Below are positions 31,327 through 52,934 of a DNA stretch of 64,000 nucleotides, one piece after another. The notes under the pieces are model-generated. The model was not told the origin of the DNA. It saw only the letters and a program-made list of their open reading frames with translations, and made no database searches. Both the position numbers and the translations under genes were made by a program. The stretch spans positions 32,001 to 96,000 of the IMG/VR virus record IMGVR_UViG_3300032280_000753; one strand, given 5' to 3'. The DNA comes from a virus (taxonomy: Duplodnaviria > Caudoviricetes). How positions within the stretch are numbered: position 1 is the stretch's first letter; each line of letters starts with the position of its first letter.

Positions 31327-32619
31327 ATGGCAAACACAATAGATATTCCAAAAGACGCTGATTTAGGTTATGTTTGTGAAGTAGCATTGCAAGCTGCTAT
31401 AGCTAAAAATTATAACTTAGCTCCAACACGTATAAGAACAAATCAAGATAAAATACAAGCAATCAGATTCTTTGATCATGATATACGTCGCAAGACTCAA
31501 ATTATATCTAAGTTGGAATCTGAATCAAATGTCTATATTGAACACGTTTGCAACTTTTATAATGAGGCTTTACGTATAACAATTGACTCCATTAATAATG
31601 GAAGTGTCAATGTATGTCAAAACGGCAAATATGTAGCTACCAAATTGATCAATATTATCGGTGATCAAGTTACAAGCACTACTGGTGGTGGAACCGCTGT
31701 TTATGATGTTGAAACCAAAACAGCAAACCTACACGTGAAATTAAATCAATCAAAGCCAGGTCAAAGATTAGTCGGTTTTCAGATATCTGGCAAAAAAGAA
31801 ATATTAGATTTGGCAAATACAACTGTTGATAATCTAAGGCAGCTTAAGGGAAGTAAATTTGGGATATCATTTATTCAGAATATGCAAACTTCTTTTGCCG
31901 GTCTTAAGTCTAAAGGTCAATTAGAAATGATGGAAGATATCAAATCACAATTGGCTGTTCCGGAAAGTGAAAAAAATGCTATCGGTGCATTCATGCTTTC
32001 AAAATGTGTAGCTTCCAGCGGTAAAATATCAAAACCAGCAGGCTTTTCTTCAAAAAAGAAAAATTATGTTGTGTATGAAGATGCCATCCAAGTAAAAAAC
32101 AAATTATATAATTTCGAAATTGACTGGGATCAATGGTGGCCAGAAATTAAAAACTCTTATAAGCGTTCTGTAAAGAAACAATTTTTACAGATAATGCCAA
32201 AAGATACCAGTTGGCATTATTTGCTACAAGATATCAAAGCAAAGGTTGTAGGAGAAGGAACCGTAATTCAAGGAAAGACAATTGGCAAAACAGTTCTGTT
32301 TTTTAATTACGTTGGAGGCTTGAACTCACTTAATTTAGAAATTAACAAATATCAAATTGAAAATTGTGGAGTTGGTGCTGCACCAGAATTAACTTTAGAA
32401 TGGCTTGGTCTAAATCCAGAAGATTCAAAACAGCCTTATGGTATAATTTATATTAAAGATTCTGGGACCAACACAAATAGAAACAATCCGCTGTTCTATA
32501 TAGAAATAAGAACAGATGGCGAAGGGCATCCACCTCAATTGAAAATTGGTCCGGGTCTTAAAGATCCAAAATTTGTAGCATCTTACATATATAAACAAAC
32601 ACTTAAGAATAAAGACTAA
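31327..32619 (+). CDS. Hypothetical protein, possibly PD-(D/E)xK nuclease-like
   Basis: 430-aa AT-rich ORF; weak E...YDV...HVK pattern only. Confidence 0.5.
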   Translation: MANTIDIPKDADLGYVCEVALQAAIAKNYNLAPTRIRTNQDKIQAIRFFDHDIRRKTQIISKLESESNVYIEHVCNFYNEALRITIDSINNGSVNVCQNGKYVATKLINIIGDQVTSTTGGGTAVYDVETKTANLHVKLNQSKPGQRLVGFQISGKKEILDLANTTVDNLRQLKGSKFGISFIQNMQTSFAGLKSKGQLEMMEDIKSQLAVPESEKNAIGAFMLSKCVASSGKISKPAGFSSKKKNYVVYEDAIQVKNKLYNFEIDWDQWWPEIKNSYKRSVKKQFLQIMPKDTSWHYLLQDIKAKVVGEGTVIQGKTIGKTVLFFNYVGGLNSLNLEINKYQIENCGVGAAPELTLEWLGLNPEDSKQPYGIIYIKDSGTNTNRNNPLFYIEIRTDGEGHPPQLKIGPGLKDPKFVASYIYKQTLKNKD

Positions 32620-45476: not shown

Positions 45477-47525
45477 TCACATTACGAAAACTTTACCAAT
45501 AGATGCACCAAGAATAATTTCTAAATCACCTTCTATTTCCAAAGCAATACTTTCCAGTTCTGATGTGTTGATTGCTTCACGGGCTTCTTCATCTTTACTG
45601 TAACGAGTTTGTTTGCGACCCCAACCTGCAATTCCAGTAATAATAGATTGTGGCAATGGATTAAACGTAATCTTACCAGTTAAAAGATATTGAGCCAATA
45701 ACTCATAAGCAAACTCATACCAATTACGCATTTTATTGTCACGAGCACTCTTCATCGTGCCAAGTTGTTGAGCTACATATTTTAATATTTTGTCTCGACC
45801 GGCATTACCTTGGAAATCATATGTTTTGCCATAAACATCAATTCCATAAACTTCTTTTAGTATATCTGCGATACGTTTACGCAAATCTTTAATAAATTCT
45901 TGCCATTTCTCCGCTGGAAATCCTCTTCCCCTTGCGAGAGCATGACCTAAACGATGTGCCAATATCCATCCAGATGACATATAACGTTCAGCACCCGTGT
46001 TACTTGTATATATAATCGTTATTGTGTTGCCGTCAGGATCTGGAATTTCATCAGCAGTAAGTTTCATCTTGTCTCTTACGAAACTCATATCAACTAAACC
46101 GACTTCTCTAAACTGGGATTTGTTAACTCTTGGATCGTTAACAAGATACATATCAAAATCAAATGGAGTTTTTTCCCATTGTCGTTTAATCTTTTCTACA
46201 CCTCGTGGAGACGTTAAGATTTTTCTATCAACATCTCCGAAAGAAGAACGCCGACCCCAATCTCCAACAGTCTTAAACTGTCTGATCGCCATTTCATCTA
46301 CTTCTTCTGAGAATAGACTTTCCATCAATTTTTCAAGATTAGTTTTATTTTCTTTTAGCATTTCTTCGAATTTTTCTTTTTCACGATTTGCGATTGCAAT
46401 TCCAAGTTCTCTTCCGCTTAGTTCTGGAAATTCATTGCTTGAAACTGTTGGCTCATATTCCAAAAATGATTGAATTGTTTTATTTGATATTCCCAAGGCT
46501 TCGGCAAAATATTTCAATGATGCATCTTTTAATCCACTAATTTTATATATTTTTTTCAATTTTAAAGCTATTTCCGGAGAAATGTTTTTGAAGTCGAGTA
46601 AAAATTGAACCTGTCTGATTTCATCTCCAGTATATTTTGCTTTATTTAGTTTTATAGCTACAGCTTTTGCATCATTGTTTTGCAATAAAAGTGCTAAAGC
46701 TACTGGGATATCACTTGTTTCTGAATATTCTTTGTTAACAACCAGTCCTGGGAATATTTGCTCCCATAGATTGTAACGTTCTATCAGTTGATAAAAACTA
46801 ATAGGACTAATTGCAGATTTTATTCCTTTTAAGAATTCATCTCTTATTCTTTCCCCTGATACTCCTTCTAAAGAATTATCATCGGATATTGCTTCATCTG
46901 CTTCTTTATCTAATTTAGTCCCAAAACGAGCAGCAAATCTTAATGCTCTTAATATTCTTAATCTATCTTCATCAAATCTTTCTTTTGCATTGCCTACGGT
47001 TTTTACAACTTTGTTTTCTATGTCTTGTATGCCGCCTACATAGTCAACAATCTCTTTATTTGAGATATCATAAAAAAGAGCATTCATTGTTAAATCCCGA
47101 CGATTGACATCTTTTTCAATTGTTGCAAATTCAACACTATCAGGTCTTCTGCCTTTTCCTATGTCCGTTCTAAAAGTAGCGATTTCATAATCATTTCCTT
47201 CTGGAGTGATTATTTTAACAATACCAAATGCCCTACCCAATTCTAAAACTCTATACTCTGGATAAGCTTTTAGAATTTCTTCTACTTCATCTGGAGTAGC
47301 ATTCGTGGTTACATCAAAATCTTTAGGAGATTTACCAAGTAATGCATCTCTTACAGAGCCACCTACTAAATAAAAGTCTTTTCCAGAGCTTTTAAAAATA
47401 TCTGACAATGTTTCTAAATCAGTCGGCAAAGTAATTTCAAATTTTTGTCTTACTTGTTCTGATAGTATTGTAGATATGTTTAATTCTTGCAGAAGTTTTA
47501 CAAGATTAGTTTTATTAATTGCCAT
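45477..47525 (-). CDS. cca: Class II tRNA nucleotidyltransferase (CCA-adding) fused to an unknown C-terminal domain
   Basis: VGGSVRD, KDFD, RRDLTMNA, EDRLRILRALRF, SGERI; about 280 extra C-terminal residues containing HRLGH. Confidence 0.88.
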   Translation of the reverse strand: MAINKTNLVKLLQELNISTILSEQVRQKFEITLPTDLETLSDIFKSSGKDFYLVGGSVRDALLGKSPKDFDVTTNATPDEVEEILKAYPEYRVLELGRAFGIVKIITPEGNDYEIATFRTDIGKGRRPDSVEFATIEKDVNRRDLTMNALFYDISNKEIVDYVGGIQDIENKVVKTVGNAKERFDEDRLRILRALRFAARFGTKLDKEADEAISDDNSLEGVSGERIRDEFLKGIKSAISPISFYQLIERYNLWEQIFPGLVVNKEYSETSDIPVALALLLQNNDAKAVAIKLNKAKYTGDEIRQVQFLLDFKNISPEIALKLKKIYKISGLKDASLKYFAEALGISNKTIQSFLEYEPTVSSNEFPELSGRELGIAIANREKEKFEEMLKENKTNLEKLMESLFSEEVDEMAIRQFKTVGDWGRRSSFGDVDRKILTSPRGVEKIKRQWEKTPFDFDMYLVNDPRVNKSQFREVGLVDMSFVRDKMKLTADEIPDPDGNTITIIYTSNTGAERYMSSGWILAHRLGHALARGRGFPAEKWQEFIKDLRKRIADILKEVYGIDVYGKTYDFQGNAGRDKILKYVAQQLGTMKSARDNKMRNWYEFAYELLAQYLLTGKITFNPLPQSIITGIAGWGRKQTRYSKDEEAREAINTSELESIALEIEGDLEIILGASIGKVFVM

Positions 47526-47556: not shown

Positions 47557-47592
47557 CAAAAGAAAAACCCCGATACTTTTAATATCGGGGTC
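47557..47592 (-). terminator. Terminator closing the tRNA/ncRNA unit
   Basis: ACCCCGATATT-AA-AAGTATCGGGGT followed by TTTTCTTTT. Confidence 0.8.
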
Positions 47593-47597
47593 GAAAA

Positions 47598-47786
47598 GTG
47601 ATAGTGTAGTCCTGATTTCATCAGATGGGTTAATCCTCCATCGGTGTCTACTTCGCTGCTATCACAACGAGCCTTCCAGGCTTTGGGGCTTTTTTTACGG
47701 AAGCTACTCCGCTTCATTCATAAGGAAACCAACCTTATTAGTCATACAGCTTATATGACACGTCAAACTCCGAGACGTGGAGTGGA
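47598..47786 (-). ncRNA. Candidate structured ncRNA (about 190 nt)
   Basis: Contiguous hairpins and a multibranch 3' domain directly before a terminator; no credible ORF. Confidence 0.55.
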
Positions 47787-47815
47787 AAAATGATTTTCAA
47801 AACATATTTATATAT

Positions 47816-48460
47816 ATGATAAAAATACAATGCACTTGCGATTTTTGCAATCAATCTTTCTTAAGGGAAAAAAAACAGTTTTATAAAAAACGTAAAAATA
47901 TTTTTTGTAGTATTGAATGCTCCAATCAATATTATAACAAAGCAGTTATAACAGAATGCGGACATTGTAAAAAAACAGTTATCAAAAAACTAACAGAATA
48001 TAAATCTTCAAAATCTGGCATGGTATTCTGCAACCATTCATGTTCTGCGACTTACAACAATACTCATAAATCTAAAGGAACAAGAGTATCTAAACTTGAA
48101 ATATTCCTACGAGAAGAAATTACTAAAGAATATGCACAATTAGATATTCGTTATAACGAAAAAAATGCTATTAACTCTGAGCTTGACATATACATACCAT
48201 CACTCAAGCTTGCTTTTGAGCTAAATGGAATATTTCATTATGAACCAATATATGGTTCTGATAAGTTGGAAAAAATACAAAACAATGACAATCGTAAAAT
48301 GCAAGCTTGTTTAGAACAGAACATTGAGTTGTGCATTATTGATACTTCATCTTTATCATATTTTAAAAAAGATAAAGCTTTGAAATATTATCAAATCGTT
48401 AAAAACTTGGTTGATGCAAAACTGCCAGGGCTGGGATCGAACCAGCGCCCATTCCGTTAA
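47816..48460 (+). CDS. Zn-ribbon plus PD-(D/E)xK (Vsr/DUF559-like) putative homing endonuclease
   Basis: CxxC and FCS..C repeats; SKLE...ELDIYIPSLKLAFELNGIFHY. Start ATG 47816 lies 5 nt after TATTTA. Confidence 0.8.
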   Translation: MIKIQCTCDFCNQSFLREKKQFYKKRKNIFCSIECSNQYYNKAVITECGHCKKTVIKKLTEYKSSKSGMVFCNHSCSATYNNTHKSKGTRVSKLEIFLREEITKEYAQLDIRYNEKNAINSELDIYIPSLKLAFELNGIFHYEPIYGSDKLEKIQNNDNRKMQACLEQNIELCIIDTSSLSYFKKDKALKYYQIVKNLVDAKLPGLGSNQRPFR

Positions 48461-48493
48461 CAGCGGAACGCTCTTCCTCTGAGCTACCTGGCA
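48422..48493 (-). tRNA. tRNA-Asn(GTT), no CCA
   Basis: TGCCAGG/CCTGGCA acceptor; TTCCG-CTGTTAA-CGGAA; discriminator G. Confidence 0.93.
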
Positions 48494-48545
48494 ATATAAA
48501 CCCAGCATATCATACATCGCACATACTATATACTGAATTCATAAC

Positions 48546-48896
48546 AATGATAGATACAAGTTCCATAAACATTATAAAGTAGGCTTGCTTGCTTAACGCT
48601 TCTATCTGCGTTCTCTTTCCCGAGAAGGGGCTTTGTCACCATTGCTTTTTAGAAAGGAACACCTAAACCCTCATGGTTAGTCAGGTCGCTTCTGACTATC
48701 TCTAATCATCATGTTAGAGCTTATAATATATTATTTCCGATTTACAAGATTGCTCTTGATTTTCCCCAACCAGCATTATAGACCCAAATATTAAATTAGT
48801 GTGCTGGAGGCTACTTACGGCTCCTTTTATCCCATTGCCTTATCGGACCTCAAAGACGATGAACGGTCCATCGGATAGGATAGAAAACTTATCATT
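48546..48896 (-). ncRNA. Candidate large structured ncRNA (about 350 nt) between two tRNAs
   Basis: Ends pair (AATGATA/TATCATT) and enclose about 8 stems, including a GCAA tetraloop hairpin. Confidence 0.6.
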
Positions 48897-48911
48897 TTTT
48901 AAAGAACAATT

Positions 48912-48982
48912 TGGATCGGGTGAGAATCGAACTCACAAGTGCGCCGTGCAAAGGCACCAGTTTCCCATTAGCTTACCGACCC
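48912..48982 (-). tRNA. tRNA-Ala(TGC), no CCA
   Basis: G3:U70 identity pair; GTGCC-TTTGCAC-GGCGC; discriminator A. Confidence 0.9.
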
Positions 48983-49116
48983 GTTTAACTTACTCAATAA
49001 ATATAGTGGAGCAAGTTAAGTTTGTAAACTATTTTTTTCAGCCGATCCAAAAAACTGTTAGTGTAGTAAGAAAAAATGCAACACTAATAATAATGATCAT
49101 TGTTCTATCTTGCATA

Positions 49117-49944
49117 TCACTCCCCTCCCTTCTTTGCAATTTCCTTAACCTTCTTGCCACCAGGAATACGAACATCGCTATTTAGCAGCTTTTGATTGCG
49201 ACTCTGAACATAGGTGAAGTTCTGAAAATCATTGTGAACTTCATCAAACATCTTCTCTGCTTCATGTGCAGTATGAACATTCCCAATACGATTACGATAG
49301 GTTTCAAGCTTTGCAGTAAGACTTGCAACACTCATGGCAATGTCCATGATAGCCTGGGTATGCTGGGCACGCTTTGCCATAACAAACTCATTAACACTAT
49401 CACTATCAAGAGTAGCCTTTAGTTCAGCAACACGACGACGCTTAAGATCAAGCCATGCGTTTTCATACTGCTTATAAAGATACCTGTAAAGCTTATCGTG
49501 ATCTGTGTTGCTGCCCCAAGTATTTGTTACGTTATAACGAAGGAAATTGCGAACGGAACGCTCTGCATATGCCATACCATTAGGAGCAAATGCAATAACG
49601 GGATCATCGTGATTAAATGAATTCGTGCTGGAATTAATGGGATAACGAATAACGTGTCCAACGTTGGAGTTGACATATCGGAACGTAACAGAATTAATTG
49701 TATGATTACCCCACTTGATATTCTCAAAGGTAAGAGTTCGTCCAGCCTGATCATCAATTAGATTATCCATGATGCTATTACCGCCCCAACGATATAGACC
49801 CCGCCGTGAACGAAACTTATTCAGATACTCAATCTGCTCAAGCGTAGTCTTTGATGTAAACTTTTCCTCAGAACAAATACGTTCAAGTAGATTGCTATTG
49901 TCGATCTTAAAAATGGACTTAGGCATATTGTTTTCTTTCTTCAC
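49117..49944 (-). CDS. Hypothetical protein
   Basis: 275-aa ORF in an early operon. Confidence 0.7.
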   Translation of the reverse strand: MKKENNMPKSIFKIDNSNLLERICSEEKFTSKTTLEQIEYLNKFRSRRGLYRWGGNSIMDNLIDDQAGRTLTFENIKWGNHTINSVTFRYVNSNVGHVIRYPINSSTNSFNHDDPVIAFAPNGMAYAERSVRNFLRYNVTNTWGSNTDHDKLYRYLYKQYENAWLDLKRRRVAELKATLDSDSVNEFVMAKRAQHTQAIMDIAMSVASLTAKLETYRNRIGNVHTAHEAEKMFDEVHNDFQNFTYVQSRNQKLLNSDVRIPGGKKVKEIAKKGGE

Positions 49945-51620: not shown

Positions 51621-52934
51621 TCAATCCGAATTTGACTTTAGTGTAGGGAAGAAGACTACATCACGTAGATTAGGAACGCCAAAGAGAAGCGAAACCATTC
51701 TATCAATTCCAAAGCCAGCACCACTCTGAGGAGGAATGCCATGCTCCATGCACTCAAGGAAATCTTCCTCAATCATCATGGCTTCATCATCGCCATTAGC
51801 TCTGTCCTGCATCTGCTGTTCCAATAGCTGACGCTGTAGAACCGGATCCGTAAGCTCCGTGTAGCACTTAACCACTTCCCATCCATCCACAATAAACTGC
51901 CATTGCTGAACCGTATTGGGATCGTTAGAATGCCTTGCTGCCATAGGAGACATATGAGCGGGATAATCAGTTACAAAAATAGGACCAATAAGCTTTGGAC
52001 GAACGTCCGTCTTAAATAGTTGATCCGCTTCCTTGGCACTCATATCATCCGGATAACGTCCAGTATGCTCATTAAACAACTTACGATATTCTACAACTGG
52101 TGCCTTATGCCAAGCTTCAAGCTTTTCCTTAATATCCTCATTATGAGCAAAGGTATTATGCAGCCTATAAATCAAATCTCTAAAAAGCTTCATATTGTCG
52201 CAATAATCCCAATACGAAGCATACCATTCAAGAGAAGTAAATTCCTGCAAATGAGAAGGATCAATACCTTCATTACGGAACTGCTTGCCAATCTCAAATA
52301 CACGATCAAAACCAGCCGCAGTCATACGCTTAAGATATGTCTCTGGTGCAATACGCAAATAGAAGTCTGCATCAAGAGCATTATGATGGGTTACGAATGG
52401 ACGAGCCTGAGCACCGCTTGCCTGTGGAGTTAGAACAGGAGTTTCTACTTCCATGAAGTTAGTTTCTTCAAAAAAACGACGGATAGAAGAAATCAATTCG
52501 CTACGAAAACGAAACAGCTTACGGCTTGCCGGATGGATAGCACATTCCAGCCACCGCTTACGTCTCATAAGCTCTGGGTCAGTCATGCCATGCCACTTAT
52601 CAGGAAAGCCACCACAAGCCTTCTGGAGCCTCTTAAAGCCCTTGTTAACCAATACGGTGCGCTCACCCGTTGAAGAAGTCCAAACCTCTCCTTGGATGCC
52701 TACAATGTCTCCGATGCGAGGGACAGAAGACCATTCCTTGAATTCCTCTTCATTCATCATCTTCTTATTGAAAGAAAATTGAACCTTTACATCGCTATTG
52801 TCTGAGATATGACCAAATGCAACGCCGCCCATCTTACGATAAGACAACACTCTGCCAACAAGAGAAATAGGATCTCCATCCTTAAGGTAAGTGATATCAT
52901 ACGCCAACTGATTATTTTCGGTATTCCAAAACAT
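51621..52934 (-). CDS. lysS: Lysyl-tRNA synthetase class II (compact)
   Basis: OB anticodon domain; EVETP, ARPFVTHHNAL, YLRIAPE, FRNEGID..H..EFT, G.GIDR. Confidence 0.93.
   Translation of the reverse strand: MFWNTENNQLAYDITYLKDGDPISLVGRVLSYRKMGGVAFGHISDNSDVKVQFSFNKKMMNEEEFKEWSSVPRIGDIVGIQGEVWTSSTGERTVLVNKGFKRLQKACGGFPDKWHGMTDPELMRRKRWLECAIHPASRKLFRFRSELISSIRRFFEETNFMEVETPVLTPQASGAQARPFVTHHNALDADFYLRIAPETYLKRMTAAGFDRVFEIGKQFRNEGIDPSHLQEFTSLEWYASYWDYCDNMKLFRDLIYRLHNTFAHNEDIKEKLEAWHKAPVVEYRKLFNEHTGRYPDDMSAKEADQLFKTDVRPKLIGPIFVTDYPAHMSPMAARHSNDPNTVQQWQFIVDGWEVVKCYTELTDPVLQRQLLEQQMQDRANGDDEAMMIEEDFLECMEHGIPPQSGAGFGIDRMVSLLFGVPNLRDVVFFPTLKSNSD

Follow-up and report, generated by a model that had tools for sequence, protein, structure and literature searches.

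Nature offers few large RNAs with complex tertiary folds, and every class added so far has brought fresh insight into RNA biology. Simpler RNAs are released by tRNA-type processing in phage T4, where RNAC and RNAD measure roughly 120–140 nt. These two small stable RNAs come from the T4 tRNA region, and their role is unknown (PMC3014915). GOLLD and ROOL are phage RNAs found 'often near tRNA islands' (PMC12286853). ROOL occurs in phages and prophages, contains multiple pseudoknots and has no known protein partner or function, and GOLLD was first found in lake metagenomes and can have tRNAs lying inside it (PMC12286853). Both are held together by kissing loops, for which covariation had first suggested intramolecular contacts (PMC12286853).

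Here we describe an RNA from the window, by which we mean the whole 64,000-nt stretch of phage DNA analysed (positions 32,001 to 96,000 of IMG/VR record IMGVR_UViG_3300032280_000753). Its core occupies positions 48548–48882 on the minus strand, about 335 nt, between a tRNA-Ala gene and a tRNA-Asn gene. This core RNA is a real, intricately folded non-coding RNA of an uncultivated giant freshwater phage, and it represents a family that is new, although its setting, that of the large structured phage RNAs of tRNA islands, is known.

The core RNA is like GOLLD in being phage-encoded, in lying among or next to tRNA genes, in its elaborate build with pseudoknots and loop contacts and in having no known function. 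GOLLD, however, is more than 800 nt long and has two domains and a linker, whereas the core RNA has 335 nt (417 nt between the tRNAs) and does not match the GOLLD model; GOLLD also forms an RNA-only nanocage, whereas the core RNA is known here from sequence comparison alone. With ROOL it shares a phage location near tRNA islands, but it does not match the Rfam model, falls short of ROOL in size and arranges its helices differently. T4 RNAC and RNAD, compared here by setting and description only, come from a tRNA cluster, a gene position that the core RNA shares, but the core RNA has about 335 nt and long-range pseudoknots. It recalls tmRNA, a pseudoknot-rich RNA of comparable size with ties to alanine tRNA identity, in that it directly follows a tRNA-Ala gene; yet it lacks a tRNA-like domain and a conserved tag frame, and neither ARAGORN nor Rfam gave a tmRNA match. 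Group I introns, too, can be phage-borne, measure a few hundred nucleotides, have a pseudoknotted core and often lie near homing endonuclease genes (here at 47777–48460), but there is no Rfam match and the helix order of the core RNA misfits the P3–P9 scheme. An intron identity was rejected, as both flanking tRNA genes are complete (49–67 bits) and no gene is interrupted. RNase P RNA was rejected as well, with no match at E ≤ 10 to the Rfam models of its conserved P4 core.

The initial annotation had recognised no family and called for an Rfam search. Searching the whole window with the 4227 families of Rfam 15 gave the core RNA no match at the gathering score, and at E ≤ 10 with permissive filters the element, RNA B (a second conserved block described below), the contiguous L003 unit, L031 and L006 returned only tRNAs and noise. 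At this sensitivity, GOLLD, ROOL, OLE, HEARO, group I and II introns, RNase P RNA, tmRNA, SRP RNA, 6S RNA and the small ribozymes are excluded. The same searches bear on whether the RNA might be a ribozyme, with tRNA precursors or its own boundaries as possible substrates. Its size, multi-pseudoknot architecture and long invariant core resemble those of large ribozymes, and it lies among tRNA-maturation genes. However, no Rfam ribozyme matches (group I and II introns, RNase P and small self-cleavers), the intact flanking tRNA genes show that it is not an intron, and no conserved cleavage-site signature was found, so we consider a ribozyme very unlikely.

Genomic setting and distribution

Both flanking genes lie on the minus strand and were called by ARAGORN and by the Rfam tRNA model: tRNA-Ala (UGC) at 48912–48982 with 49.3 bits and tRNA-Asn (GUU) at 48421–48494 with 66.9 bits, neither with an encoded CCA. 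The gap between them is 417 nt and contains no credible gene, in keeping with the ORF-free stretch pointed out initially. The order tRNA-Ala, RNA, tRNA-Asn is kept wherever both tRNA genes were detected (the window, L003, L013, L014, L015, L016, L025 and L006), which bears out the phage tRNA-cluster setting that had been proposed. Just upstream of the core RNA, tRNA-Ala is also found in L002, L004, L011, L019 and L027; in the 13 loci where one was detected, it lies 0–70 nt away.

Other genes nearby encode a CCA-adding enzyme (45477–47525) and a class II aminoacyl-tRNA synthetase (51621–52934). Against the phage GenBank collection, the synthetase had matches only below 60% identity, at about 35–38% among the matches listed. 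Three neighbouring proteins of 275, 147 and 216 aa belong to no Pfam or PHROG family and have protein atlas scores below 0.9, and no recognisable RNA-binding family was found among the neighbours; a tblastn search of the phage GenBank collection with the 275-aa protein found nothing. Just upstream of the candidate promoter of tRNA-Ala, a 45-codon minus-strand ORF (49038–49175) overlaps the end of the 275-aa gene and, translated by eye, encodes a short hydrophobic peptide.

Homologous loci were collected through the 275-aa protein, through exact patterns of conserved blocks and through the nearest virus record, G001. They hold 16 distinct versions of the core RNA, all on related uncultivated freshwater phage contigs (alignment A3). 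A profile search found one copy per locus, and BLAST of the core against five whole records placed it at a single position in each, split into two nearby pieces in G005. Pattern scans returned the same six IMG/VR contigs each time, together with three metagenome contigs. The invariant core had no match in 185,579 GTDB species genomes; a looser pattern matched three times there, and these matches, none of which extends past the pattern, were taken as chance. We found no cultured relative of the genome, and a distant blastn search of the phage GenBank collection with the stretch from tRNA-Ala to tRNA-Asn matched tRNAs only. CheckV rates contigs of 42–103 kb as 11–25% complete, which implies genomes of roughly 400 kb, and one homolog of the 275-aa protein lies on a 290-kb contig.

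The core RNA is conserved in a mosaic pattern: across all 16 sequences, stretches as long as about 50 nt have almost no variable base, and the sequence between them changes freely. In the most distant loci that carry the core RNA, the adjacent 275-aa protein is only 42–46% identical.

Covariation and the fold of the RNA

We built a structure model from RNAalifold, a covarying-run scan over all column pairs and inspection, and counted its support on alignment A3. It comprises 75 pairs arranged in 13 helices; of its 1161 cells, 97.2% are standard pairs, a level reached in none of 500 shuffles. Thirty of the 75 pairs change on both sides, compared with 14.1 in shuffles and 4–9 when partners are slid by 1–3 columns; several of the compensatory counts depend on a single deep division of the sequences into two groups, and the family represents one phage clade, which limits the number of independent evolutionary events. 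The covariation score is 0.246, against 0.03–0.07 in the slid controls.

About 100 paired cells hold G-U, which on the plus strand would read as A-C mismatches, so the RNA strand is the minus strand; position, covariation and G-U cells together thus bear out the initial placement of a minus-strand RNA between the two tRNA genes. The nearest virus record, G001 (L001), is 98% identical to the window, with seven differences over a 457-nt BLAST match. Six of the seven are C-to-U in the RNA sense and fall within 14 nt (window 48797–48810), on or beside the 5′ strand of the long helix described below, and those that fall in pairs all leave G-U pairs. This cluster in L001, C-to-T at the DNA level, looks like a local hypermutation or editing-type event or like strong selection for changes that G-U pairing tolerates.

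The core RNA is not coding. A minus-strand ORF of 38 aa (48526–48642) overlaps blocks that are invariant at all codon positions, without synonymous variation; its ATG is lost in L003, it spans indels that are not multiples of three and, downstream of the invariant block, indels in the 16-sequence alignment disrupt every reading frame. A plus-strand ORF (48799–49185) has no family match and overlaps a tRNA. These observations, with the pattern of substitutions, also speak to the reading that there is no RNA feature here at all, and that homing endonucleases have homogenised the locus at the DNA level or a small gene is encoded. HNH endonuclease genes are indeed inserted at different points of the locus in different phages, and the 38-codon ORF does overlap an invariant block. 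Gene conversion, however, yields neither compensatory nor G-U-preserving changes, and the ORF shows the defects just given, in its lack of synonymous variation, its lost start and its non-triplet indels. Because of the compensatory and G-U-preserving changes, we regard a DNA-level or coding reading as essentially excluded.

Read from 5′ to 3′ on the minus strand, tRNA-Ala is followed by a leader (48883–48911) that is A/U-rich and variable in sequence, with no conserved pairing or partner. The 5′ domain (48828–48882) consists of two nested helices. The outer one, helix 1 (48878–48882 with 48828–48832), is 94.7% paired and the inner one, helix 2 (48865–48870 with 48844–48849), is 100% paired, each with two compensatory pairs, and the loop of the inner helix contains a conserved segment at 48856–48862. 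A linker at 48821–48827 leads from this domain to an invariant single-stranded segment (48811–48820), in which nine of the ten bases are invariant in the 16 sequences and position 48811 varies; the partner initially proposed for this segment gained no support from the counts. Helix 5 is a long helix with a top of variable length (48766–48810; 48802–48810 with 48766–48775) and four compensatory pairs. Its complementary sequences differ from one lineage to the next, and the helix always begins right after the invariant segment and ends right before a conserved A-rich linker.

Next comes a GNRA-tetraloop hairpin (48745–48758), assessed by eye; its columns are misaligned, so it stands outside the column count. 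A hairpin occurs at this position in all lineages with stems unrelated in sequence, and its loop is GCAA or GAAA in most. Two further hairpins follow. That of helix 6 (48700–48719) has a 6-bp stem (48714–48719 with 48700–48705; 100% paired, four compensatory pairs) and a nearly invariant 8-nt loop (48706–48713), and that of helix 7 (48678–48698) has a 7-bp stem (48692–48698 with 48678–48684; 98.2% paired, three compensatory pairs) and a conserved 7-nt loop (48685–48691). Helices 8 and 9 form a two-tier hairpin (48638–48677), with 48673–48677 paired to 48638–48642 and 48663–48667 paired to 48648–48652; compensatory changes support both, in three and four pairs, respectively. A block of about 45 nt (48593–48637) is almost entirely invariant in the 16 sequences and contains two small hairpins (48611–48626 and 48597–48610) whose pairs never vary across the alignment. 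A run of C in this block could form, with the first small loop, a compact H-type pseudoknot. Helix 13 (48556–48592; 48588–48592 with 48556–48560) is 100% paired and encloses a variable 27-nt loop; one of its pairs occurs as A-U (11 sequences) or as G-C (five).

The best-supported element of the core RNA is not a local hairpin but a 7-bp pseudoknot (helix 4), in which the linker 48821–48827 pairs with the hairpin loop 48653–48659. Paired cells make up 97.3% of this main pseudoknot, compensatory changes occur in five of the seven pairs, and the sequence pairs of L003/L013, of L031 and of L019 are entirely different and fully complementary. Two more long-range contacts are candidates. Helix 3, a 7-bp loop–loop contact between 48856–48862 and 48706–48712, is 98.2% paired and has one compensatory pair. 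Helix 12, a loop–tail pseudoknot between the loop 48601–48606 and the 3′ tail 48549–48554, is 100% paired, and the only substitutions in its blocks occur together in L005, where an A-U pair becomes a complementary U-A pair. An alternative partner of the 3′ tail, 48707–48712, fits equally well, and we therefore treat the two extra contacts as provisional. Pairings of a CCGAU-type segment with 48737–48741, of the tail with 48707–48712 and of the C-run with the first small loop are compatible with the data, but nothing varies in them.

These contacts could also be read as joining separate copies of the RNA. In a self-assembling, RNA-only multimer of the GOLLD or ROOL type, 48856–48862 with 48706–48712 and 48601–48606 with 48549–48554 would link copies into a ring or cage. 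GOLLD and ROOL share the tRNA-island setting and their kissing loops were first read as intramolecular; two of the three long-range contacts here are loop–loop or loop–tail contacts between nearly invariant sequences, and covariation is blind to the difference between intramolecular and intermolecular pairing. At 335 nt, however, the core RNA is much smaller than ROOL or GOLLD, and neither Rfam model matches it. By comparison with GOLLD and ROOL, a multimer seems unlikely.

With 16 homologs in hand, the structured non-coding RNA that the initial annotation had proposed is supported by covariation and conservation, and parts of its fold are not, as the real long-range contacts differ from those noted. 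The stems GGACC/GGUCC, CCAGCA/UGCUGG, CUCUAA/UUAGAG and UAGUCAG/CUGACUA all covary in the 16 homologs, as does the UAUCC/GGAUA part, rather than the whole, of the proposed TATCCTA/TGGGATA stem. The noted GNRA hairpin corresponds by eye to the hairpin of differing sequence present at that place in every lineage. The UUCUC/GAGAA stem is invariant and so neither supported nor refuted. Three other proposals did not hold. The halves of the terminal closing stem are 62% and 69% paired; the A-U pair of a GGAG/CUCC stem fails in 10 of 15 sequences, and its GGAG segment belongs to the main pseudoknot; and an AAGUAG/CUACUU pseudoknot shows no covariation and is absent from the three most divergent lineages. 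Together, these three are 72.7% paired, compared with 72.0% in shuffles, with no excess covariation. Terminal closure by leader–tail duplexes was tried and rejected, as the predictions differ from lineage to lineage, and the description of the RNA as closed falls with it, the leader 48883–48911 having no conserved partner.

Folding no better than shuffled sequence had been named in advance as evidence against the RNA. The folding energy is indeed no better than that of shuffles (z = −1.24 for the 417 nt and −0.17 for the core) and is not significant on either strand. The structural evidence for the core RNA, drawn from aligned sequences, is comparative, not thermodynamic, and the comparative evidence outweighs this result.

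The tRNA operon, its turnover and RNA B

The best promoter-like site of the region lies at 49000–49028 on the minus strand, about 17 nt upstream of tRNA-Ala. It is a candidate sigma-70-like promoter by consensus match alone, with 10 of 12 hexamer matches and a 17-nt spacer. Downstream, the region has a single terminator-like site, at 47566–47592. The conserved 3′ tail of the core RNA in L003 runs right up to the first base of tRNA-Asn, where cleavage by RNase P would set the 3′ end of the core RNA. Release of the core RNA by tRNA end-processing is plausible from this arrangement of genes.

A G-U-rich hairpin of 47 nt is predicted between the core and tRNA-Asn in the window (48496–48542, minus strand) and is optional. 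It is present in several relatives, with mostly one-sided changes that keep the pairing, and is absent from L003 and L013; L027 and L019 diverge right after the tail.

Beyond tRNA-Asn, a plus-strand ORF (47777–48460) lies antisense to the operon, between tRNA-Asn and RNA B, and resembles HNH or homing endonucleases (PHROG matches, E 9e-13). Its final 40 nt overlap the 3′ half of tRNA-Asn, and a remnant of an L003-type tRNA-Asn 3′ end lies just beyond the ORF (47770–47790), which suggests that the endonuclease arrived with a replacement tRNA-Asn. Homing endonuclease genes seem to have a hotspot at the tRNA-Ala/tRNA-Asn locus.

Several side observations concern the same locus. The tRNA-Asn downstream of the core RNA seems interrupted or replaced in the relatives G001, L002 and L004. 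G001 diverges from the window inside the D-loop of tRNA-Asn (L001:1480–1500), and L004 (5400–5500) keeps the 5′ half of tRNA-Asn up to the anticodon loop and then diverges, perhaps by an insertion or intron; ARAGORN called no tRNA-Asn in L002 (5400–5500) or L004 (5400–5500). L006 (100–200 and 620–640, minus strand) has a 14-nt 3′ fragment of the window-type tRNA-Ala directly upstream of the RNA, a complete, different tRNA-Ala farther upstream and a remnant like a 5′ half-tRNA after the optional hairpin, and we read these remnants as traces of repeated tRNA gene replacement at the locus. Between the 275-aa gene and tRNA-Ala, minus-strand ORFs of 180 aa lie in L014 (4418–4960), L019 (4442–4984), L022 (4508–5050) and L027 (1753–2301); they are absent from the window, and the L014 copy has a faint HNH_3 match. 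In L013 (12468–12548), ARAGORN called a tRNA with a four-base anticodon (ttta), which could be a frameshift-suppressor-type tRNA or a mis-call.

The operon context raises the question of whether the RNA acts only in cis and has no role once excised, for instance as a structured spacer that steers precursor processing or its timing, shields the transcript or tunes read-through. The core RNA is always flanked by two tRNA genes of its own strand, and some lineages carry the optional G-U-rich hairpin directly before tRNA-Asn; both points speak for such a role. Such a part would, however, have no need of eleven helices, a 7-bp long-range pseudoknot and near-invariant blocks of about 45 nt. The invariant blocks are more conserved than the flanking tRNAs, and the RNA is unchanged where tRNA-Asn has been swapped (the window) or is broken or was not detected (G001, L002 and L004). 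We find a purely cis-acting role quite unlikely.

Comparison of records also revealed RNA B, a second conserved non-coding block on the minus strand (47594–47775 in the window; L003:5452–5640), which has no Rfam match. In L003, it directly follows tRNA-Asn and ends at the operon terminator, and in the window it lies behind the antisense HNH endonuclease gene at 47777–48460. RNA B is 83–96% identical across records whose proteins are about 45–65% identical. BLAST found it in three of the five records that carry the core RNA and not in G002 or G006; the two RNAs are therefore separable and not obligate halves of one molecule.

The same absence weighs on the reading of the core RNA as the 5′ half of a two-domain RNA, a very divergent GOLLD-like molecule with RNA B as its 3′ half and tRNA-Asn in the linker. 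In its favour, RNA, tRNA-Asn, RNA B and terminator follow one another in L003 without an intervening gene, RNA B keeps its high identity across distant records, and tRNAs sometimes sit in the GOLLD linker. But RNA B as a GOLLD-like second domain fails, being missing from two of the five core-RNA records; the window has 680 nt of an antisense endonuclease gene between the parts; neither part, nor the contiguous L003 unit, matches GOLLD in Rfam; and each part has its own internal pairing. A two-domain RNA is, in our judgement, highly improbable.

Proposed mode of action and meaning

Taking this evidence together, we think it somewhat more probable than the converse that the core RNA belongs to a new family of stable, structured non-coding RNAs that are borne on a tRNA operon, excised and act in trans as a particle in one clade of very large freshwater phages. 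On this account, the RNA would be co-transcribed on the minus strand with tRNA-Ala and tRNA-Asn from the candidate promoter at 49000–49028, and it would be excised after tRNA-Ala by RNase Z or exonucleases and before tRNA-Asn by RNase P. The core (48548–48882) is predicted to fold into eleven helices, tied together by at least one 7-bp pseudoknot and probably by two more loop contacts. The covarying helices and pseudoknots would serve as a scaffold on which the invariant unpaired segments are exposed, and the functional surface would comprise 48812–48820, the 7-nt loop 48685–48691 and the block 48593–48637.

The excised, stable RNA would then act in trans as a compact particle, and its invariant surface may bind a conserved partner during infection. 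This partner most likely belongs to the translation or tRNA-maturation machinery, which the phage re-equips in other ways too, because the neighbours of the RNA are tRNAs, a CCA-adding enzyme and an aminoacyl-tRNA synthetase. We also entertain, as possible though unlikely, a further-reaching interpretation in which the core RNA, independent of GOLLD and ROOL, makes up a third class of 'ornate' phage tRNA-island RNA. It would then be either an RNA-only multimer that assembles through its invariant loop contacts, in the manner of GOLLD and ROOL, or a new ribozyme engaged in the takeover of tRNAs or translation by giant phages.

GOLLD and ROOL are two of the few known classes of large RNA, and both occur in phage tRNA islands with functions that are unknown. 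At about 335 nt and with a well-defined pseudoknotted core, the RNA described here is within reach of chemical probing and cryo-EM and makes a more tractable model for the function of such RNAs. With it, the 'translation toolkit' of giant phages gains an RNA component, alongside their tRNAs, CCA-adding enzyme and aminoacyl-tRNA synthetase. If it is an unrelated third RNA in the same setting, the tRNA operons of large phages would be a general home for such RNAs.
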